A stretch of DNA of 64,000 bases, from positions 8,770 to 72,769 of the forward strand of contig JANWHN010000086.1 of the NCBI GenBank assembly GCA_025450445.1. Reading direction: 5' to 3'. Position 1 is the stretch's first letter. The number at the start of each line of letters is the position of its first letter. This document shows positions 1,866 through 13,984 of the stretch, piece by piece. The notes below the pieces were generated by a model. That model was not told the DNA's origin and did not search any database. It was given only the letters and a program-made list of their open reading frames with translations. Made by a program: the position numbers and the translations under genes. This stretch comes from Anaerolineales bacterium (GTDB lineage: Bacteria; Chloroflexota; Anaerolineae; Anaerolineales; UBA11579).

Positions 1866-3341
1866 CTAGCTGGCTTCGGCCAGCATCTTTTCGGAGAAGA
1901 TCTCAAAGCCGTCACCGCCACGTTCTTTGACGCGATACATGGCTTTGTCAGCGTTACGTAACAACACGTCTGTGTCGGCGATCTCCTTGTTACTCATAGC
2001 AATGCCGATGCTGGCAGTGGTGTTGACCGTCTGCCCCTCTTTAAACGTATAGGGTTGCAAAATGGCATCGCGAACGCGACCCGCTACTTGTTTGGCGTGT
2101 GAAGTCTCTTCAATGCCATCCAGGAAGATTGCAAATTCGTCACCGCCCAAGCGGGCTGCGAGGTCACCAGGGCGGATGCTGCTTTCGAGTCGCCGAGCGA
2201 ACTGAATGAGCAATTCGTCGCCAGCGTGGTGTCCGAATTGGTCGTTGATCTTTTTTAGTCCGTCCAGGTCGATAAAAAGAACTGCGAAGTGATAATCAGG
2301 CTCTGTTAGTGGACGAAGGTTGGCACGGCGCATATGATCGGTGAAGTATGCACGGTTAGGTAGCTGGGTGAGTACGTCGTGGAAAGCGTGGCGCTGCAGC
2401 ATTTCCTGGGTCTCTTTGCTTTCTGTGATGTCATGCAGGACACACACCCAACCGAGTTTTGCGGATTTCAACGGGGCGGAATGGACATCGAAATGTTGCA
2501 GTCCAACGCTTGTTTCCATGTCAAAGGCTTCACCCCGATCAAACTTTTCGTGAATCTTAGCTATGCGCTCCTGATCCATTCCAGCCCTTATTAGCAATTC
2601 ATCTAAGTTCTTTTTTCTTCCGGTCCGATCTACATCGAACAGCGTTTCCGCGGCGATGTTGGTGCGTTCTATCTCCAACTCTGGATTCAGCACCAAGACC
2701 GGGTCGGGAGTGCTTTGCAGGATGGCGTCCATGAGAGCGTGCTGTTCGACCAAATCGGCTTGAAAGCGACGTTTGCTGGTGATATTGCAAAACATAATCT
2801 CGGTTCCGATGATCTCGCCTTTATCGTTCTTGCTGGCGACGCCGGAGCACATCGCAAAAACAGGTTCGCCCTCGCGGTTATAAAGCGCCATTTCCCGCTC
2901 GCGTACAAAACCCTCAGCCTTAATGTCGTTGAAGAGCTGATTAGCGTCGTTCTGATCGGTCCACATGTAGCCCGGGAATTTTTTTTCTAAGATCTCGGTT
3001 TTTTGCTCGATACCCATCATGCCGAGGAAATATGGATTCGCATAGACAATGCGATCCTGCGCGTCTGTATACACGACCCCATCGTGGGCGTTGTTGTGGA
3101 AGTTAAGGTCGGACGTTGCACGCTCGAGAAAGTTCTTTTCCAGGGCGAGTTTGGTGTAATCGCTTTTGGCCTGGGCCAACTCCTGGCGAAGCTTTTGCAG
3201 CTCAGACCGTTTGGGCGTGGCTTTCGCCTTTTTCTTAATCGTTGATTTCAATTCAAAGCTCTTTCCCGCCGGCAAAAGGCGTAGACGACAATATAGTCTA
3301 TACCAACAGAGGCGCAAATCCTGCCGTGGTACTCCTAACAA
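1866..3341 (-). CDS. Diguanylate cyclase with an N-terminal coiled coil and two PAS-like domains (GGDEF)
   Basis: C-terminus has RLGGDEFAIFL preceded by an RxxD I-site (RPGD) five residues upstream, and PAS-like segments (VYTDAQDRIVYANPYFLGMMG). The start is uncertain: TTG 3341, or TTG 3248 behind GGAAAGAG. Confidence 0.85.
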   Translation of the reverse strand: MLGVPRQDLRLCWYRLYCRLRLLPAGKSFELKSTIKKKAKATPKRSELQKLRQELAQAKSDYTKLALEKNFLERATSDLNFHNNAHDGVVYTDAQDRIVYANPYFLGMMGIEQKTEILEKKFPGYMWTDQNDANQLFNDIKAEGFVREREMALYNREGEPVFAMCSGVASKNDKGEIIGTEIMFCNITSKRRFQADLVEQHALMDAILQSTPDPVLVLNPELEIERTNIAAETLFDVDRTGRKKNLDELLIRAGMDQERIAKIHEKFDRGEAFDMETSVGLQHFDVHSAPLKSAKLGWVCVLHDITESKETQEMLQRHAFHDVLTQLPNRAYFTDHMRRANLRPLTEPDYHFAVLFIDLDGLKKINDQFGHHAGDELLIQFARRLESSIRPGDLAARLGGDEFAIFLDGIEETSHAKQVAGRVRDAILQPYTFKEGQTVNTTASIGIAMSNKEIADTDVLLRNADKAMYRVKERGGDGFEIFSEKMLAEAS

Positions 3342-6413: not shown

Positions 6414-9400
6414 TCAAAGCCATTTCTTTTCAACGACAACTAGGAAGGCGTCGATCACATCTGGGTCGAACTGCGTGCCGCGACAGCGTTTGAGCTCGAT
6501 GACCGCCTCAGCGTGGGATAGCGATTTGCGATACACGCGCTCGTCGGTCATTGCCACGTAGGCATCGGCAACACTGATAATGCGGGCAATCAACGGTATC
6601 TGCTCTCCTTTTAGACCGAGTGGATAGCCACTACCATCGTAGTTTTCCTGATGGGCACGGATAACGGGCGCTACGCGGCTTAAGGTGCGCACTGGTTCGA
6701 CAATACGAGCTCCGATTTCAGGATGCTGCCGCATGATCATTTCTTCCGCCTGTTCTAGTTTGCCAGGCTTTCGCAGGATCTCATCCGGCACACCGATCTT
6801 GCCAATGTCATGCAGCAAGGCTCCCCAACGGATATCCCACAGTTCCTCTTCAGTGCAACCTATTTGCTCGCCGGTCACAATTGCTAACTCGGCAAGCCGC
6901 TGGCTGTGGCCGCTTGTGTAGCTATCGCGAACATCGATGGCGCTTGCGAGCGCGCTAACCGTTTGCATATATGAATCGCGTACCTCTTCCAACAATCGAG
7001 CGTTTTCAAGAGCAATGCCCGCATGGATGGCGAAGGAAGAAACGAGCTGTGCGTCGTTTGCGCTGAACTGATTAGCCTCGTATCCGTCCACGGTCAGGAC
7101 GCCTATGCATTCCCCGCGCACAATAAGCGGAGCACCAATCCAGCTCTTTACGCCGGCTGCCCCGGGTGCGGCGAGCCAATCCGGATGCTCGCTGATATCT
7201 TCAAACACGACGGTGCGGTGTTCGTAGAGGAGCGGATGGCTGAATTTATCTTCTTTGATCGGCAATTCATAGCCAATGACGTCTGGGCTCAAGGATCCAG
7301 CAACCGCGCGAATGCTAAGGCCCTCGCCTTTTACGATCTGGATGGAGGCGCTATCAAAGGGCACCACACGTTTGAGCTGCTCAAGCACAAGATCAAGCAC
7401 CGTCGAGCTATCGGTCGTCGCGCTGAGGATCGCGGCAACTTCGCGCAGCGTCTCGGCCTGTTCGCGTTGGACGCGCTCTGACTCGTAGAGCCGCATTTTT
7501 TCGATTGAGGTACCAAGCTGGCCGGCAATCGTGCTCAACAGGCGCATGTCGGAGTCGGTAAAAGCTTCGACTTGAGCGCTTTCAGCGTTGATGACACCCA
7601 ACACACGATTGTCATTGCCTTCAATGGGCACACAAAGTTCGGAGCGCATAGATTTGTTGATCAGCATGTAACTGGGTTCTTTGCGCACATCTGCAACGCG
7701 CCATGGCTTACCGGTGGCCGCCACTCGCCCGGTGATCCCTTGTGAAAGGGGAACAAGATTCTTCTTGACCTGATCGCTGGCACCGCGATAGAAGCGGTTA
7801 ACGCGCAGGGACTGGACCTCTTCATCCAGCATCAGGAAGCCAAACTGATCCGGATAGATGCTGGCACCGATGATTTCTGTTGCTCGCTCCAATAGTTCAT
7901 CTTCGGTCTTTGCGTTTACGGCCGCATGTGTAATCGCGTGCAACACGGTTAATTCTTGCAACTGACGGCGGGTTGATTCGAAAAGATTAATCCCTTCGAG
8001 CGCAATAGAAATCTGTTCGCATAATGTGGTTAAGGCGGCCACTTCATATTCGTCAAACGCGTCCAGCTCATAGCTTTCGATGTTTAGAAGAGCAACTACT
8101 TTTTTATAGATCTTTATCGGAATGATCAATTCCGATCTTACTTTTTCGTGACCTTCAACGAGATTGTATTCAGGGCTCTTTTGAACGTTGTTTGCGACCA
8201 CAACTTGTCCGCTTCGGGCTGCTTTGTCCAGCAGGCCGATGCCAAATGCTTGAGCATATCCTTTGCCGGTCACGACTCTTTCAAACGAGCCGCTAACGGC
8301 CTCCATCACATATTCGCGGCGGTCCTCGTCGACCCGTGAAATATCTGTGGATACGTAATCCATTTCTTTGTTCAGGCGCTCAACCACGATCTTAAAGAGC
8401 TTGTCGCGTTCGAGTACACCACTCATCTCTGCAGTCAGCTTGTTCAGAATGCCAAGCTGGCGGGCGCGCTGGCGCTCGGCAGCAGCATTGCGTAAGCGCT
8501 CGATACCGCTCGTCAACTGACCAGCCAGAGTTACAAGAAGGCGTTCGTCAGCTTCTGTAAAATGATTTGCCTGCCGGCTTTCCGCGTTGACAACACCGAT
8601 AATGCGGTCTCCCAGTTTCATCGGCACGCACAGTTCTGATAGCGTGCGCGTGTCGTAGTCGAGGTAATTGCTTTCCTCGCGAATATCGGCAATCCGCATT
8701 GGGCTCCCACTGGCTGCCACTCGCCCGGTGACGCCTTTTTCCAGCGGGATCAGAACACCCTTGATCTCCGGTGCGGCTTCATAAGAGGGATGGAAATACA
8801 ATTCTTTGCCGGTCTGAGAGAGCAGCATGATCCCGAAATTGTCGGGATAGATACTGTCTCGAATGATATGCGTGGCGCTTTCTATTAATTCATCTTCATC
8901 CACGGCGTCGGTGGATGAGGCGGCCACTTTGTGCAAGATGCTAAGCTCCTGAAGCTGACGATGCGTCGCCTGGAACAAGCGCGCATTTTCCAGGGCAACA
9001 GCGGCCTGGTGGCAGAGGGTTTGCGCCAAATAGATCTCGCGGTCGCTAAATGTGCGTGGGGCGCGGGTATCTTGCAATTCCACCAGGCCGGCGTTCTTGC
9101 TTTGGGCGACTAGAGGAAGCAATAATAGCGTGGTAACTCCGGCCGCTTCGAGGGCCTTCCGTTCTTTCGGCAACAACTTTTCATCATCCAGGCGTCTTTG
9201 CAATGGACGGCTCTCGACTAAGACTTTGTTTAGCTCAACCTGTTCAGCAAGCGGAACGGGTTTGAAATTGAGCGGCAGTTGCTCTCCGTGCGGATCGACG
9301 AATTCCATGCGAGCTTTTAGGCCGGCGCCGGCTTGCCAATCTGCCAAGATGCACACTTGGACATCCAGCAGATGCGTCAGTTGATGCGCTACCACTTGGA

Positions 9401-9983
9401 GAACTTTTTCAAGCTCCAGGCTTGAGGCGATACTGGCCCCGGCGAGAGCCAGCCCGGCGAGCTCATCCGTGTGCTCGCTTTGCTGGTTAGCGGCCTGCTG
9501 GCGCCAAACTTCAAAGTCCTTGCGAGGGCTTATGTCGAAGATGTTGGCGCGGATCAGGTCTTTTTCCATTGTCGGTAAACGGAGCAGATTTACTTCGCAG
9601 GAAATATGCTGATCCAACTGGTTCTTAAAGACCCATTCAAAAACTGGAGCCTGGTCGTCTAACGCTGCCTCAAATTTTTGGCTCAATTGTTCTTTCAATG
9701 AACCTGCACCAGCTTGTTTCTTTGCACTCAATTGCCCCAGAGTAATTTTCTTTAGTTCTTCGATGGTTCCTTTAAACAGATGAAGGGCATTTTCGTTGGC
9801 CTCAACCACTCGGCCATTTTTAGGGTCCAGGATTAGAACCGCTTCAGCTGCGTGGGCGATAAGCGCGGCAAAATTTGGCAGCGGCTGGGTTTTGCTTTTG
9901 CCTTTGCGCCTCCCGATCAAAGGCTCGCGGTTAATTGAGGCAGCATCCCTTGCCCCAGGAGTTTTCTTTTTTAGTTTGGCCAA
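6414..9983 (-). CDS. Cytoplasmic multi-sensor HD-GYP c-di-GMP phosphodiesterase (PAS + five GAF-like modules + HD-GYP)
   Basis: C-terminus has HSQRLAEL...LLHDIGKIGVPDEIL...HPEIG...GSGYPLGL (HD-GYP). Five internally similar modules of about 160 aa each end in ...ALENARL/IERLR/IEKMRL (GAF-like). There are no TM segments. The start codon is TTG. Confidence 0.85.
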   Translation of the reverse strand: MAKLKKKTPGARDAASINREPLIGRRKGKSKTQPLPNFAALIAHAAEAVLILDPKNGRVVEANENALHLFKGTIEELKKITLGQLSAKKQAGAGSLKEQLSQKFEAALDDQAPVFEWVFKNQLDQHISCEVNLLRLPTMEKDLIRANIFDISPRKDFEVWRQQAANQQSEHTDELAGLALAGASIASSLELEKVLQVVAHQLTHLLDVQVCILADWQAGAGLKARMEFVDPHGEQLPLNFKPVPLAEQVELNKVLVESRPLQRRLDDEKLLPKERKALEAAGVTTLLLLPLVAQSKNAGLVELQDTRAPRTFSDREIYLAQTLCHQAAVALENARLFQATHRQLQELSILHKVAASSTDAVDEDELIESATHIIRDSIYPDNFGIMLLSQTGKELYFHPSYEAAPEIKGVLIPLEKGVTGRVAASGSPMRIADIREESNYLDYDTRTLSELCVPMKLGDRIIGVVNAESRQANHFTEADERLLVTLAGQLTSGIERLRNAAAERQRARQLGILNKLTAEMSGVLERDKLFKIVVERLNKEMDYVSTDISRVDEDRREYVMEAVSGSFERVVTGKGYAQAFGIGLLDKAARSGQVVVANNVQKSPEYNLVEGHEKVRSELIIPIKIYKKVVALLNIESYELDAFDEYEVAALTTLCEQISIALEGINLFESTRRQLQELTVLHAITHAAVNAKTEDELLERATEIIGASIYPDQFGFLMLDEEVQSLRVNRFYRGASDQVKKNLVPLSQGITGRVAATGKPWRVADVRKEPSYMLINKSMRSELCVPIEGNDNRVLGVINAESAQVEAFTDSDMRLLSTIAGQLGTSIEKMRLYESERVQREQAETLREVAAILSATTDSSTVLDLVLEQLKRVVPFDSASIQIVKGEGLSIRAVAGSLSPDVIGYELPIKEDKFSHPLLYEHRTVVFEDISEHPDWLAAPGAAGVKSWIGAPLIVRGECIGVLTVDGYEANQFSANDAQLVSSFAIHAGIALENARLLEEVRDSYMQTVSALASAIDVRDSYTSGHSQRLAELAIVTGEQIGCTEEELWDIRWGALLHDIGKIGVPDEILRKPGKLEQAEEMIMRQHPEIGARIVEPVRTLSRVAPVIRAHQENYDGSGYPLGLKGEQIPLIARIISVADAYVAMTDERVYRKSLSHAEAVIELKRCRGTQFDPDVIDAFLVVVEKKWL

Positions 9984-10103
9984 CTCTGTTCTTCTTTCCA
10001 GCCGCTACTTAAGCACTCCCGGGCGAGAGCAAGCGAAGCTTCGCCCTCACCCCAGCGAGTGCTGTTTTAAAACTAATGGTGCTAAGTAACGTGCTTGAGC
10101 TGT

Positions 10104-10316
10104 TTAGCTCAGCGCGGGAGCCTGGATCAGGCTGCCGAGGCCGTGCATAAACTGATCAAGATTGCGGGCCTGGATGGAGCTGATGGCGCGCATTTCCTCT
10201 TCGTTCAAGTGGAAGGCGCTCAGTTTTTCCTGGCCGTGGCCACTAAGCAAGGCCGCTTCGAAATTCTTGTCCAGCAAAGCTTGCGTAGCGATTGCGTTCA
10301 ATTTGAGTTTAGACAT
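10104..10316 (-). CDS. 70-aa predicted all-helical small protein of unknown function
   Basis: ATG 10316 is preceded by AGGAGA with a 6-nt spacer. It lies 45 nt downstream of the repeat-peptide gene on the same strand. It has no signal peptide or TM segment. Confidence 0.6.
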   Translation of the reverse strand: MSKLKLNAIATQALLDKNFEAALLSGHGQEKLSAFHLNEEEMRAISSIQARNLDQFMHGLGSLIQAPALS

Positions 10317-10361
10317 TTCATGTCTCCTAAGAAAAAGATAGTTGCGCGATCGTCGGGGCGA

Positions 10362-10586
10362 TTAGCCGCCAACGCCGCCACCGACTGGGCGGTTGTTCTG
10401 GGGATAGCCACCTACACCACCGCCAACTGGGCGATTGGATTGGGGATAGCCACCCACACCACCACCAACTGGGCGATTGGCCTGAGGGAAACCACCAACA
10501 CCACCACCAACTGGGCGGTTAGCCTGAGGGAAACCACCAACACCACCACCAACCGGACGGGAAAAATAAACCTTGCTGTGCGTCAT
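10362..10586 (-). CDS. 74-aa Gly-rich tandem-repeat peptide: MTHSKVYFS + 4.6 x RPVGGGVGG[F/Y]PQ[A/S/N]N
   Basis: ATG 10586 is preceded by GGAGG with a 5-nt spacer. The repeat copies differ mostly at synonymous codon positions. It has its own promoter-like element and an upstream terminator. Confidence 0.65.
   Translation of the reverse strand: MTHSKVYFSRPVGGGVGGFPQANRPVGGGVGGFPQANRPVGGGVGGYPQSNRPVGGGVGGYPQNNRPVGGGVGG
10365..10559 (-). repeat. Tandem 42-bp in-frame repeat, 4.6 copies (coding)
   Basis: Units read on the minus strand begin cgYccRgtYggYggYggY...; four full 42-bp units plus a 27-bp partial unit are contiguous. Confidence 0.9.
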
Positions 10587-10618
10587 TTAAACCTCCAAAG
10601 GGTTTGAGAGATGAGCGG

Positions 10619-10651
10619 ATTCTAGGAATGAGCCTATGAACGGGCCTATGA
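10619..10651 (-). promoter_or_regulatory. Candidate promoter with two 8-bp direct repeats (TCATAGGC, 12-bp period) 7 nt upstream of a TAGAAT -10 element
   Basis: On the plus strand GCCTATGA occurs at 10632-10639 and 10644-10651, and ATTCTA (TAGAAT on the minus strand) at 10619-10624. The element lies about 33 nt upstream of the peptide ATG. Confidence 0.4.
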
Positions 10652-10659
10652 GCAAAAAG

Positions 10660-10690
10660 ACAAAAAAGCCGCTTGAAACAAGCAGCTTGG
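10660..10690 (-). terminator. Rho-independent terminator after the regulator gene
   Basis: The minus strand reads GCTGCTTG-TTTC-AAGCGGC (8-bp stem with one G-U pair) followed by TTTTTTG. Confidence 0.6.
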
Positions 10691-10750: not shown

Positions 10751-13700
10751 TCAGGTCTTGACGGTTAACTCCTCATAGTACTTTTGCAAATCAACTAGCG
10801 GTTCCGCATTTAGGTCCTTTCGCAGTAAGGATTTATATTTCCTGAAATGTGCAATGGCGGCAGACGGAGACCCCGAAAGCGCCAAACACTTCATTAATTC
10901 TAAATGGATTTCATCTCGGTAAGGGTCTACGGAAAGGATCTTTTCGTAAAGCTCCCGTGCTTGCGAATACTTCTTGGCTTTACTCTCGCTTGTTGCCAGC
11001 CTTACTAAGGCTTCGAGGTAAAGATTACGCAGTTGATCGCGGCGATTGTCTGCCCAATCCATAAACACATCCTGCAAGTATGGGCCTCTGTGGAGCTTGA
11101 CAGCCTGCCGCAGTAGTTCATTTAATTCGCTTGCAGAGAGTTTGCTGCCCCCCGCCTGATGCAGGATATCTTGGAATTCCTTTACGTCGTACCAAATCTG
11201 GATAGCAGGATGCAGGCTGTAAACATCATCTTCAAAAACAATCGCGTCCCTGAAACCAATAGCTCGCCTAACTCTCCACAAGGTGGCATGAAAATTACTG
11301 CTGATCTTGCCGGGGCTGAAATCGGGCCAAAACTCCAGTCCAATCGTTTCTTTGCGCACTTTGTTCTTATCCAGGATGTAGAAAAAAAGTGCGCGTGCAC
11401 GGCTAGAGCGCCATATTGCTGAAGGGAGCAGTTCGCCTTCTCTGCGGACCTCGCCGAGGCCGAAAGCACGTACTTCAAGGCGCAAGGTGGGAACCTCTTC
11501 GCTTTTAGCCCGACCCTCGATAATTGATTTTCCTGTAGGAATTTGGTTAACTCTCTCCAAGAGGTTTTTGATCTGCACAGTTGGCATCGTTTCGGCGACA
11601 TAATTCAAAAACTCTGTCGAATAACGGGCGGCAACGACAAGGAATTGGTCATAGCCTAAGCTGGCGCTGCCTTCCAAAGCTTGCTCTAATAACTCCTGTG
11701 CCCTTGGTGAATCATTCTTTTCGTGATAAATACGGGCGGCCAAGAAGGCTGCCAGCACCTGGCTTTGCGTTGGCATGGCTCCGGTTTTCCAATTGTCCAG
11801 GGCGTTCATGAGCTGTTTAAGCGCGAGCTCACGCTGCCCCATATCGGTGTAAATGTTTCCAAGCTGGAGCGCATACTCGGATTTGTCCAAGCTTCCACCA
11901 ACGCTGCTGGCCGCCTGTCTGAGCCAGCTCATCGCCTCGTTGTAATTGTTTCGATGGCGCTCTACGCGGGCTAGGCCAGCATAGGTCACGGCCAATTCTT
12001 GGGTTTGGCCTGATTGCCTGCTCAATTCCAGAGCTTGTTCAAAGAACTGTTGCGCCTCGTCCAGTTCACCAAGCTCCAATAGCATTTCCCCTTGTCCATT
12101 TAAAATTCCAATTTGGACCAAGATACGATTTGCAGCTTTGGCATTCTCCAAAGCGAGCGAGTATTGTCTCCAGGCGTCCGAATAGTGACCGATCTGATGA
12201 TGCAGGTAGGCTATATTGTTGCGAGCGGAAGCTAGGGCTCCCAGATTGCTTCTTATCTTCAAGTGGATCTCGAGCACTTCTTCAAACGCTTTTTGGGCAT
12301 TTAGCATTTGGCTGGAGTTGATGTAAATGAATCCGAGATCGTTTAGACTCTCAGCCAGGTCATAAAGGTAGATCGTTCTGAATTTTTTGTCGCTCGAATC
12401 CGCCAGCTCGCGTAAACCCTTTACGGCTGAATTCAAGTATGTCACAGCCCGCCGCGCCTCTCCTAAATAGAAAGCCGGTACGGCCTTAAGCCGTTCGGCT
12501 TGGAACCATTGGCGGCTATCCCTTTTCGCCTTGGCCTTTCGGCTCAAAAATGTTTGGGCTTGCTCGGCCAGTGAAATTGCTTCTTGGTGTCTACCGGCGA
12601 AGCGATAAACCATGCCCCGGGTAATGATTGCATTGGCCAGGGCTTCGGCATCATCTTGCTTTTCGAGCTCCGGTTGCGCAATCTCAAGTAGCTGCAAGCT
12701 GGATTCAAAGCGACTTTGATTAACTAACGATTTTGCTTGATAGAGAAGAAGGCGTGGCGCCAGCGTGCGCGCGTCACTTCCTTCGGATAAGAGTTTTAAC
12801 CATCTCGCCAAAAGCACCTGACGATCCGAGGTGTAGTATTCCCCAGCGACCGCATCCATCCAAGCAGCGGCTTCTTCTTTGTCCCCGGAAGTCAATTTAT
12901 GATGAATTGCGTCCTCCCATTCCTCCCTGTTTTTGTGCCATTGAGCCGCTCGCCGGTGCAATTCAGTTTTGCGCGCGCTTTGCGAGCGCTGGAAATAATC
13001 CTGGAGAAATTCCGAGAAGAGTTGGTGGTAACGGTAGCTGTTGCCTTCTTTGGTTTCCGTGCGGCTGACGAAAAGATTTCGGTCTTCAAGAGAGCGCAAA
13101 AAAAGAGTTGAGTCTTTGCGTTGCAACAAGTAGTTGCATAAAGCTTCATTGAAGTCGCCCAGGATCGAGGTTGCGAACATGAAATCCCGCAGCTCTTCAC
13201 TTTGCCGGCTAACAACTTCTTCGGCTAGGTAAGCATAGACCTGCTCGATGGCGCCAGTGAATTTTGGCAGGCCACCTTCGTCCATGGTGCGGACAGCCAG
13301 AAGGATTGCGATAATCCAGCCATCGGCGCGTTTGGCGAACTCTTCTGCCTGCTCGTTTGAGAGCCGCAGGCGGTAGTTTTGCAAGACGAGCTTTTGAAGT
13401 TCCTCGGGTCTGAAACGGAGCTCGTCGGCGCTGATGGTTATAAGTTCTTCGCGGATGTAGAGATTGGCCGTTGGGATGCCATAGACACTGCGCGAGCCGA
13501 TCAGGAGGCGCAAGTGATCGGGGAGATTTTCGAGCAGATTTTCGATGAAATCGACGATCTGCTGGTTTTCACCTGCCAGGTGGTAGTCATCGAGGACAAG
13601 CAGACAAAAATCTTCAACTTGCTCCTCGACCTCGTTGATCAGCTCGGCTGCCAGAGTTGCGGCATCAGCAGCCGCACCGGGAGCCATTAGATTTTCTTCA

Positions 13701-13984
13701 ATGCTCTTGCCGAAGTGCGGTGCTTGTTGCTGGAAAGAAGCGACAAGGTGACGCACAAATTGGACCAAATCACCATCTTCAGGCCCAATGCGATACCAAC
13801 AAACAAGTGCGTCTACATCTGCGGCAAAATCCACAAGTAGGGTGGTTTTGCCGTAGCCGGCTGGGGCTGAAACAAAGGTCAGTTTTCGATGCAGATTTTG
13901 GTGAAGCGTATCCACCAAGCGCACACGACGCAAAACATCCTTCCGCCTTTGTGGCGGGCGCACTTTGGTGAGCAGAATTGTCAT
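10751..13984 (-). CDS. Large signal-transduction ATPase-TPR regulator with a C-terminal SARP-type winged-helix + BTAD domain
   Basis: N-terminus has a P-loop SAPAGYGKTT and Walker-B-like LLVLDDYH (MalT/LuxR-type STAND N-terminus), followed by long TPR-like helical repeats. The C-terminus has LEVRAFGLGEVRREGELL...LWRVRRAIG (OmpR-like wHTH) and YRDEIHLELMKCLALSGSPSAAIAHFRKYKSLLRKDLNAEP (BTAD). Confidence 0.8.
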   Translation of the reverse strand: MTILLTKVRPPQRRKDVLRRVRLVDTLHQNLHRKLTFVSAPAGYGKTTLLVDFAADVDALVCWYRIGPEDGDLVQFVRHLVASFQQQAPHFGKSIEENLMAPGAAADAATLAAELINEVEEQVEDFCLLVLDDYHLAGENQQIVDFIENLLENLPDHLRLLIGSRSVYGIPTANLYIREELITISADELRFRPEELQKLVLQNYRLRLSNEQAEEFAKRADGWIIAILLAVRTMDEGGLPKFTGAIEQVYAYLAEEVVSRQSEELRDFMFATSILGDFNEALCNYLLQRKDSTLFLRSLEDRNLFVSRTETKEGNSYRYHQLFSEFLQDYFQRSQSARKTELHRRAAQWHKNREEWEDAIHHKLTSGDKEEAAAWMDAVAGEYYTSDRQVLLARWLKLLSEGSDARTLAPRLLLYQAKSLVNQSRFESSLQLLEIAQPELEKQDDAEALANAIITRGMVYRFAGRHQEAISLAEQAQTFLSRKAKAKRDSRQWFQAERLKAVPAFYLGEARRAVTYLNSAVKGLRELADSSDKKFRTIYLYDLAESLNDLGFIYINSSQMLNAQKAFEEVLEIHLKIRSNLGALASARNNIAYLHHQIGHYSDAWRQYSLALENAKAANRILVQIGILNGQGEMLLELGELDEAQQFFEQALELSRQSGQTQELAVTYAGLARVERHRNNYNEAMSWLRQAASSVGGSLDKSEYALQLGNIYTDMGQRELALKQLMNALDNWKTGAMPTQSQVLAAFLAARIYHEKNDSPRAQELLEQALEGSASLGYDQFLVVAARYSTEFLNYVAETMPTVQIKNLLERVNQIPTGKSIIEGRAKSEEVPTLRLEVRAFGLGEVRREGELLPSAIWRSSRARALFFYILDKNKVRKETIGLEFWPDFSPGKISSNFHATLWRVRRAIGFRDAIVFEDDVYSLHPAIQIWYDVKEFQDILHQAGGSKLSASELNELLRQAVKLHRGPYLQDVFMDWADNRRDQLRNLYLEALVRLATSESKAKKYSQARELYEKILSVDPYRDEIHLELMKCLALSGSPSAAIAHFRKYKSLLRKDLNAEPLVDLQKYYEELTVKT

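Follow-up and report, generated by a model that had tools for sequence, protein, structure and literature searches.

A selected glycine-repeat micro-gene beside a SARP-type regulator in uncultured Chloroflexota, tentatively read as part of an AfsR/AfsS-like pair

Does a very short open reading frame (ORF) composed almost entirely of glycine-rich tandem repeats encode a protein, and if it does, what might that protein do? We asked this of a minus-strand micro-ORF in a 64,000-nucleotide stretch of DNA (the window, meaning the whole stretch analysed) from contig JANWHN010000086.1 of an Anaerolineales bacterium of the Chloroflexota. An earlier note on this DNA had proposed a coding frame under purifying selection, whose product could be a multi-copy peptide precursor or a small elastin-like disordered peptide. 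We found that the frame belongs to a two-gene operon and has relatives in which its coding capacity is kept. Its surroundings suggest, tentatively and by analogy, a small repeat protein that works with the adjacent regulator as AfsS works with AfsR.

The coding sequence occupies positions 10362..10586 of the minus strand, from an ATG at 10586..10584 to a TAA at 10364..10362, and a GGAGG Shine-Dalgarno sequence (10592..10596, minus strand) is read directly 5 nt 5′ of the start codon. Translation of the ORF gives 74 residues: a 9-residue head, MTHSKVYFS, followed by 4.6 copies of RPVGGGVGG[FY]PQ[ASN]N, that is, four 14-residue units and a terminal RPVGGGVGG. The product contains 25 Gly and 9 Pro. 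At 10363..10560 Tandem Repeats Finder identified 4.7 copies of a repeat whose period is 42 bp, the copies matching at 85%, and a degenerate pattern of the unit occurred five times in the window, compared with 0.02 occurrences expected from shuffles. Among the copies in the window, 14 of the 17 variable columns fell at codon position 3 of the sense frame (binomial P = 4.7e-5), and residue variation was confined to unit positions 10 (F/Y) and 13 (A/S/N). Our re-reading agreed exactly with the earlier note on the coordinates of the ORF, the position of the GGAGG and the sequence of the peptide, and likewise upheld its statements that the copies differ mostly at synonymous sites and that only two of the 14 residue positions vary.

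The consensus from 33 full units is [QR]-P-x-G-G-G-[VTI]-G-G-x-P-x-x-[CN]. Within it P2, G5, G8, G9 and P11 are invariant, positions 3, 10, 12 and 13 are variable, and position 1 switches between Q and R and position 14 between C and N. At all loci the head before the first unit has 8-10 residues and 0-2 residues follow the last Gly block. Since the final unit of every peptide ends right after its Gly block, the protein consists of n+1 Gly blocks joined by n linkers, the linkers having the form x-P-x-x-[CN]-[QR]-P-x. Peptide size ranges across the loci from 49 to 74 residues, with 2-4 full units and 2.6-4.6 copies in total. No signal peptide, hydrophobic signal sequence, leader or follower peptide could be read from the sequence of the micro-protein. 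Searches with it of Pfam, NCBIfam and the sequences in the PDB gave no matching family or sequence, Rfam had no family within the micro-gene region, and the annotation of the source contig records no gene with this product. A single-sequence AlphaFold2 (AF2) model reached a predicted local distance difference test score (pLDDT) of 51 with no confident fold and was uninformative, and a Foldseek search with that model returned no match, both methods performing poorly on folds of this class and on single sequences.

Relatives of the micro-gene were found at 12 metagenome loci that form two clades (11 intact loci and L137), with the frame open. Loci L121-L125 are metagenome contigs reached by looking up the product of the gene downstream, a protein of 70 residues; L126 was found with a two-unit DNA pattern in metagenome contigs, L127-L134 through the L126-type partner protein, and L137 carries the protein P0035. 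All loci have in common the gene order pyrimidine-nucleoside phosphorylase, regulator, peptide, 70/71-residue protein, GAF-HD-GYP protein, queA, DUF2905 and ruvB. Clade A, to which the window belongs, has peptides of the form MTH(S)K.. + (RPVGGGVGG[FY]PQ[ASN]N) x 3-4 + RPVGGGVGG; those of clade B read MF[NK]S.K..A[NT] + (QP.GGG[VT]GG.P.[FV]C) x 2-3 + QP.GGG.GG.[HY], and the clade-B partner protein carries the NCBI labels "Chloroflexi/Chloroflexota bacterium". Unit position 14 is Cys in every clade-B unit and Asn in every clade-A unit. The peptide at L127 (8321-8512) is a mosaic that carries both linker types (…PHAN, …PIAN and …PTFC; QPLSGGIGGDPHAN, QPLSGGIGGFPIAN and QPLSGGIGGSPTFC) and in which S replaces G at unit position 4. 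With both types in one peptide, the ...AN and ...FC linkers appear to be interchangeable.

Wider searches added little to this set. When 1.84 billion cluster representatives were searched exhaustively with HMMER, 28 matches resulted, among which P0035 from clade B was the sole true relative and the rest, P0032 aside, were unrelated repeat proteins, indicating that the family is narrow, largely uncalled, or both. A word-indexed protein search with the micro-protein returned 8000 Gly-rich candidates, none of them significant; a loose degenerate DNA pattern run against genome contigs gave 120 single chance matches, all in high-GC genomes; and a strict unit-junction pattern found nothing in metagenome contigs. 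The micro-gene is a lineage-restricted one of uncultured Chloroflexota. Among the 28 matches, P0032 (L136, 158-433) is a 91-residue ORF with four 14-residue units of the form HP[VM]GGG[VI]GSG...D (HPVGGGVGSGPQLD) similar to the unit of the window (xPVGGGVGxxPQxx). Its contig, short and of high GC, is an unrelated context with neither an NHLP-like gene nor a regulator nearby, and the resemblance is probably convergent or spurious.

We used these loci to ask what, if anything, selection has acted on. Among the orthologues the ratio of nonsynonymous to synonymous substitution rates (dN/dS, Nei-Gojobori) in the sense frame was 0.02-0.24 at dS 0.3-2.6. The ATG start is kept in every intact locus, and GGAGG lies 5-6 nt 5′ of the start codon in all 11 aligned loci. 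Arrays differ in length by exact 42-nt units and the head region by a 3-nt indel, such that indels are in-frame only, and neither a stop nor a frameshift was present in the 11 intact orthologues analysed. Selection covers the whole 14-residue unit, linker residues included, rather than the Gly and Pro codons alone. Just one other frame also has a low dN/dS, because its wobble positions are shared with the sense frame; it contains 1-8 stops in every locus. The proposal of the earlier note that selection acts on the peptide, as opposed to a slippage-generated repeat, is thus borne out by frame retention, by indels of whole units or codons and by the substitution pattern.

The contrary reading holds that the 42-bp array is a slippage-generated non-coding repeat, or that an antisense ORF of 170 residues (10095..10607, plus strand) is the real gene. 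Gene callers did choose antisense ORFs on the contigs of clade A from the Joint Genome Institute (JGI; L121 2303-2590, L122 422-691 and L123 3549-3776), the sense product is absent from the source contig record, and protein-database searches with the peptide return almost nothing. The antisense frame, however, has a dN/dS of 1.2-3.3 in clade A (1-3 in round figures, against the low values of the sense frame), and in clade B stops break it at L128, L129, L130 and L131, four of seven loci. The earlier note had left open that the antisense ORF might be the conserved one, and it is not. This ORF stays open because the reverse complement of GGN codons contains no stops, and gene callers are misled as a result. 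In clade-B assemblies it is the sense ORF that was called as a gene, and it is listed as P0035. Together with the conserved start codon and Shine-Dalgarno sequence, these comparisons argue that the micro-ORF is almost certainly a translated, genuine gene and that the antisense ORF is spurious.

At several clade-B loci the peptide gene and the gene for the 71-residue protein are present as tandem duplicates (L127 7615-8860, L130 7687-9120, L134 4744-6005 and L129 5355-6472, with L132 alike). In the duplicated pairs the promoter-proximal peptide copy has decayed and the other is intact; frameshifts are common to L127, L129 and L134, and L130 has a stop and a collapsed array. Both copies of the 71-residue gene are intact and near-identical in L127, L130 and L134, and the first copy in L129 and L132 is broken by a run of N. 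Decay of the promoter-proximal peptide copies is as expected from relaxed selection on a redundant coding copy.

With the coding status of the micro-ORF in hand, the question becomes what its neighbours say about function. The micro-gene is the leading cistron of an operon of two genes. The second cistron (10104..10316, minus strand) has its own AGGAGA Shine-Dalgarno sequence and follows the peptide stop after 45 nt, a gap that contains no terminator, alternative terminator or antiterminator structure. It encodes a 70-residue, all-helical protein that resembles proteins of the NHLP clan (Os1348 / Frankia_peptide type), a resemblance that the earlier note had overlooked. Over residues 6-63 the protein matched the NF038399 model ("Os1348 family NHLP clan protein") with E = 4.1e-6 and 26.8 bits, below the 40-bit cut-off, and its clade-B homologue scored 21.9 bits against the same model, also below the cut-off. 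The matches to PF14407 (E = 0.074) and, by phmmer, to 6lk7_A (E = 0.35) were weak. An AF2 model with a pLDDT of 82 contains five helices, and a Foldseek search of the PDB with this model gave no significant match and did not list 6LK7. The partner is 67-73% identical between the clades with its first 17 residues invariant, and is conserved far better than the linkers of the peptide.

The protein that the model is named for, Os1348 of Pseudomonas sp. Os17, is a dimeric helical protein of 85 residues whose deletion lowers antibiotic activity, and acetyltransferase, peptidase, SagB-type dehydrogenase and efflux genes lie alongside it (PMC7726476). The 70-residue partner is like Os1348 in being small and all-helical, in its profile match, in the motifs ALLDK[ND]F...L and HL..E..A..SI, which it has in common with 6LK7, and in having its expression governed by a dedicated regulator, which for the partner is presumed. 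It differs in scoring under the model cut-off, in the absence of 6LK7 from the Foldseek result and in its sequence, which has no C-terminal core region and no GG cleavage motif. Its neighbourhood differs as well, having no GNAT, peptidase, SagB-type dehydrogenase or efflux genes.

Upstream of the operon, two TCATAGG direct repeats with a 12-bp period (10651-10645 and 10639-10633, together 10633..10651, minus strand) lie over the presumed -35 region. The hexamer TAGAAT (10619..10624, minus strand) is a candidate -10 element by virtue of its position 8 nt after the second repeat, the corresponding clade-B candidates are TAAAAT or TAGAAT, and no recognisable -35 hexamer was found in the operon promoter. 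In their promoter-proximal copies both clades keep the arrangement GCTCATAG-N4-CGTTCATAGG-N8-TA[GA]AAT, with diverged intergenic DNA on its flanks, and the exact pattern TCATAGN6TCATAG occurs a single time in the 64 kb. Target promoters of SARP regulators have direct repeats that overlap the -35 region, with the 3′ repeat situated 8 bp away from the -10 element, and a period of 11 or 22 bp (PMC10936776). The layout in the window fits this rule in its 8-nt spacing to the -10 element, and its period is 12 bp instead of 11 or 22. We infer that the TCATAGG repeats are a candidate SARP box that the adjacent regulator may bind. An intrinsic-terminator-like hairpin with a T-run (10656..10688, minus strand) ends the regulator gene and separates its transcript from that of the peptide operon.

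The regulator itself (10751..13984, minus strand) is a protein of 1077 residues in which a MalT-like STAND NTPase is combined with TPR repeats and, at the C-terminus, a SARP module made up of a winged helix and a BTAD domain; its SARP domain, too, had escaped the earlier reader. Profile matches were obtained to the MalT model (2.4e-75), to BTAD (3.1e-19) and, sub-threshold and in the TPR region, to the AfsR model (1.3e-14). The C-terminal 259 residues align over their whole length to the SARP domain of AfsR (8hvr/8k60) with E = 3e-5. The regulator adjoins the peptide in every locus whose contig reaches it (L123, L126 and L127-L134). Between the peptide clades its TPR region is the most diverged part, with 45-60% identity compared with 73-86% for the NTPase. 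It is presumed to be the activator of the peptide operon.

The explanation that we favour, tentatively, is that the micro-gene encodes an AfsS-like small repeat protein that would be activated by the adjacent AfsR-like regulator and would act together with it. AfsS has 63 residues with three 12-residue repeats (PMC2267785), and AfsS-like proteins are only 17-38% identical, yet all have 2-5 repeats (PMC10832544). The afsS gene is a direct activation target of AfsR, and AfsS binds AfsR through its repeats and raises the affinity of AfsR for promoters (PMC10832544). The locus described here matches that pair in size, repeats, divergence and adjacency and, apart from the period of the putative box, apparently in promoter layout, hence the proposed role. 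The micro-protein has 49-74 residues, 2.6-4.6 short tandem repeats and no match to a DNA-binding domain, and it diverges fast as its repeat architecture persists. The neighbouring regulator of about 1000 residues combines a SARP module, a STAND NTPase and TPR repeats as AfsR does, and the direct repeats of the promoter lie over the presumed -35 region, the 3′ one at 8 nt from the candidate -10 hexamer. As to the earlier interpretation, the coding frame under purifying selection stands, and it is the context, namely the SARP regulator, the SARP-box-like promoter and the NHLP-like gene, that suggests an AfsR/AfsS-like pair.

In such a scheme the SARP domain of the regulator would bind the TCATAGG repeats over the -35 region and drive activator-dependent transcription of both genes of the operon. 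The repeat protein would stay inside the cell as a multivalent protein-interaction module and would not be a secreted natural product. Its repeats would engage a binding partner, for which the TPR sensor domain of the regulator is the most plausible candidate, followed by the co-expressed helical protein. Binding of this partner would tune the output of the regulator, and the number of repeats would set the valency of the interaction.

Several points weigh against this proposal. No similarity to AfsS emerged in the family-model and solved-structure-sequence searches, in which no direct alignment with AfsS was run, and we take the 12-residue AfsS repeat to be unrelated to the Gly-rich unit of 14 residues. 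As no homology emerged, we claim likeness to AfsS in mode of action, not membership of the AfsS family. The regulator has the domain order NTPase-TPR-SARP, which is permuted relative to AfsR with its N-terminal SARP domain, and its NTPase is of the MalT type rather than NB-ARC. The putative boxes have a non-canonical period, 12 bp against 11 bp for AfsR and afsS (11 or 22 bp being canonical), and AfsS has no counterpart to the co-transcribed NHLP-like gene. The known pair comes from Actinomycetota and the one proposed here from Chloroflexota.

Other objections concern how much the evidence can carry. Since the whole block from the nucleoside phosphorylase to ruvB is syntenic in all loci, finding regulator and peptide side by side does not count as independent evidence at this phylogenetic depth. 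TPR regions are usually the fastest to diverge in any case, making the high divergence of this one weak evidence, and the AF2 model of the peptide contributes nothing. Finally, SARP regulators and NHLP-clan proteins are both typically tied to natural-product clusters, which would also suit a product peptide.

Such a product is the substance of an alternative that we consider unlikely, namely that the micro-gene encodes a multi-core precursor of a ribosomally synthesized, post-translationally modified peptide (RiPP) or of a peptide pheromone. The Gly blocks would then be spacers or recognition sites, and the Pro-bracketed linkers (such as YPQNNRPV or SPTFCQPM) would be cut out, perhaps modified, and exported. 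The released compound could be antibiotic-like, or it could serve as a signal to the TPR domain of the regulator in the manner of RRNPP quorum sensing. In RRNPP systems a TPR sensor regulator is found next to a small peptide gene, and the TPR-bearing regulator that adjoins the micro-gene recalls this arrangement. Conserved blocks that alternate with variable segments in a variable copy number are compatible with such precursors without being specific to them; multi-core RiPP precursors of the cyanobactin PatE type, multi-core microviridin/graspetide precursors and fungal dikaritins likewise have tandem conserved and variable sub-segments. The micro-protein differs from these in having no leader or follower, with a head of only 8-10 residues and no signal peptide, and in that the Gly block is its most conserved part, unlike a typical protease recognition sequence. 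The consistent Cys of clade-B linkers and the Asn at the same position in clade A count in favour of this reading, but the interchange of Cys and Asn at one position and the presence of both linker types in L127 argue against residue-specific chemistry.

Secondary-metabolite genes are typical SARP targets (PMC10936776), and the co-transcribed gene matches the NHLP-clan Os1348 model, the eponymous protein being tied to antibiotic activity (PMC7726476); this match, however, is below the cut-off, and the 70-residue protein has neither a core region nor a GG cleavage motif. No maturase or other RiPP enzyme, protease, transporter or exporter was found within 8-10 kb in 14 loci or among the scanned ORFs of the window (1.9-55 kb). 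The earlier note had reported no maturation enzyme, protease or exporter adjacent to the ORF, and this holds for the ORFs of at least 180 residues that we scanned in that range. The neighbours scanned in the same part of the window, and in the 8 kb on each side in L127-L134, are housekeeping, signalling and envelope proteins.

It is improbable, too, that the product is a stand-alone structural micro-protein, an estimate that covers two variants jointly. In the first, the P-x-GGGxGG-x-P blocks would form polyproline-II (polyglycine-II) helices joined by 4-residue turns into a bundle of 3-5 helices like the snow-flea antifreeze protein; in the second, the chain would be disordered and elastomer-like or condensate-forming. 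Such a protein could serve in stress protection, in binding to surfaces or ice, or as a scaffold. That the final unit stops after its Gly block, leaving n+1 blocks for n linkers, is what one would predict of blocks that are structural elements. P2, G5, G8, G9 and P11 are invariant, and in a helix with three residues per turn Gly would fill two of the three faces, G5/G8 on one and G6/G9 on the other. Snow-flea antifreeze protein has 6 helices in 81 residues; the 14-residue period and the total size of the micro-protein are near to these. Known bundles keep conserved Gly helices and variable loops, an example being gp38 of phage S16 (bioRxiv 10.1101/2023.11.25.568672). The Gly-rich segments of 9-10 residues and the short variable turns are likenesses to the polyproline-II bundles of snow-flea antifreeze protein, the Obg N-domain and gp38 at the level of sequence only, and the micro-protein differs from these bundles in that its units are regular, exact tandem repeats and clade A has no Cys.

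Clade A has no stabilising disulfides. The AF2 and Foldseek results described above, with their weakness for this class, give the bundle no support, and the neighbourhood indicates no cold, desiccation or surface functions. A structural role would also leave the conserved coupling to a helical partner and the SARP-type promoter unexplained.

A further reading, which we consider quite unlikely, is that the repeat protein is the cognate ligand of the STAND-TPR-SARP regulator, acting either as a leaderless multi-copy precursor from which the regulator senses released Pro-bracketed linkers or as an intact multivalent protein, in an undescribed Chloroflexota signalling system. The protein would at the same time be the smallest known natural polyproline-II bundle, one of exact tandem repeats, with the NHLP-like protein as its chaperone or partner.

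Far less probable is that the micro-ORF is a regulatory upstream ORF whose peptide is functionless and whose Gly- and Pro-rich translation, through ribosome pausing, glycyl-tRNA supply or elongation factor P, controls the 70-residue gene. The ORF does lie 45 nt upstream of a better-conserved gene on the same transcript, and it is rich in codons for Gly and Pro (25 and 9 of 74). Nevertheless, the whole unit is under selection with its linkers, known attenuator leaders do not resemble a modular repeat protein of 49-74 residues, the stretch between the genes contains no alternative terminator or antiterminator, and the 70-residue gene has no link to glycine metabolism. We rejected attenuation on the selection pattern.

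BASS amyloid signalling was considered and rejected as well. The locus resembles BASS systems (bioRxiv 10.1101/2020.01.06.895854) in having, within a Chloroflexota lineage, a short G/N/Q-rich repeat gene beside a STAND NTPase-TPR protein. It differs from them in that the matching N-terminal NLR motif is absent, since neither GxGG nor GGxG occurs in the regulator and its N-terminus is normal for the MalT type, and in that there is no Bell or other effector domain. Two Pro per 14 residues are also unfavourable for cross-beta structure. Least probable of all, to the point that we give it next to no credence, is the non-coding repeat or antisense gene weighed above, which the comparative selection data contradict and which we rejected.

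Beyond the operon, genes for cyclic di-GMP (c-di-GMP) signalling flank it in an order that is conserved in all loci. Directly downstream, a protein of 1189 residues with PAS, five GAF and HD-GYP domains is encoded at 6414-9983 (minus strand), and a PAS-GGDEF cyclase lies further on at 1866-3341 (minus strand). Between the stop of the 70-residue gene and the GAF-HD-GYP gene, the window at 9985-10110 (minus strand) can fold as RNA into a very stable structure (-53.7 kcal/mol; z = -5.05 relative to shuffles). The structure has a long outer stem around a GC-rich hairpin (GGGGUGAGGGCGAAGC...GCUCUCGCCC) without a U-tail; its GC-rich core is conserved in L121-L125 and has no Rfam match. Possible roles are those of a terminator, of a processing site or of a 5′ untranslated region element of the HD-GYP gene.

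A regulator of the same architecture is encoded on a plasmid of Ca. Chlorohelix allophototropha, with 26% identity over 96% coverage. At that locus the regulator architecture is accompanied by a direct repeat downstream and by small ORFs; a Gly-repeat peptide is absent. In the segment downstream of the Chlorohelix regulator (L135, NZ_CP128401.1, 6789-7514) we observed a 13-bp direct repeat, TAGCAATATCCTA, in 1.9 copies at 6842-6866, an ORF of 44 residues that ends NPCGGTNPWGV, and an ORF of 112 residues that is weakly similar to the 70-residue partner (hhalign P = 0.011; shared L[ST].E[ED]...I.S[IV].A....F). These features may represent a remote form of this module from which the Gly repeats are absent.

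None of the described families matches the repeat family, which gene callers missed in the clade of the window. It exposes a blind spot of annotation: the source annotation omits a micro-gene under strong selection, and on related contigs an antisense call takes its place. As the antisense of GGN codons is open, Gly-rich micro-genes may be systematically missed and replaced by spurious "hypothetical proteins". The 14-residue unit with its invariant P-x-GGGxGG-x-P would be a compact system in which to study Gly-rich polyproline-II structure or multivalent TPR ligands, and the coupling to an NHLP-clan-like gene without nearby biosynthetic genes raises the question of what role stand-alone "leader-like" proteins have. 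The genomic logic of the locus looks like a domain-permuted, non-actinobacterial variant of AfsR/AfsS with an extra NHLP-clan-like partner. If this analogy is true, the combination of a large NTPase-TPR-SARP regulator with a small repeat protein as its target and co-factor would extend, in domain-permuted form, beyond the Actinomycetota. The mechanism of AfsS has been explained only recently, and an independent example would help to show what the repeats do.

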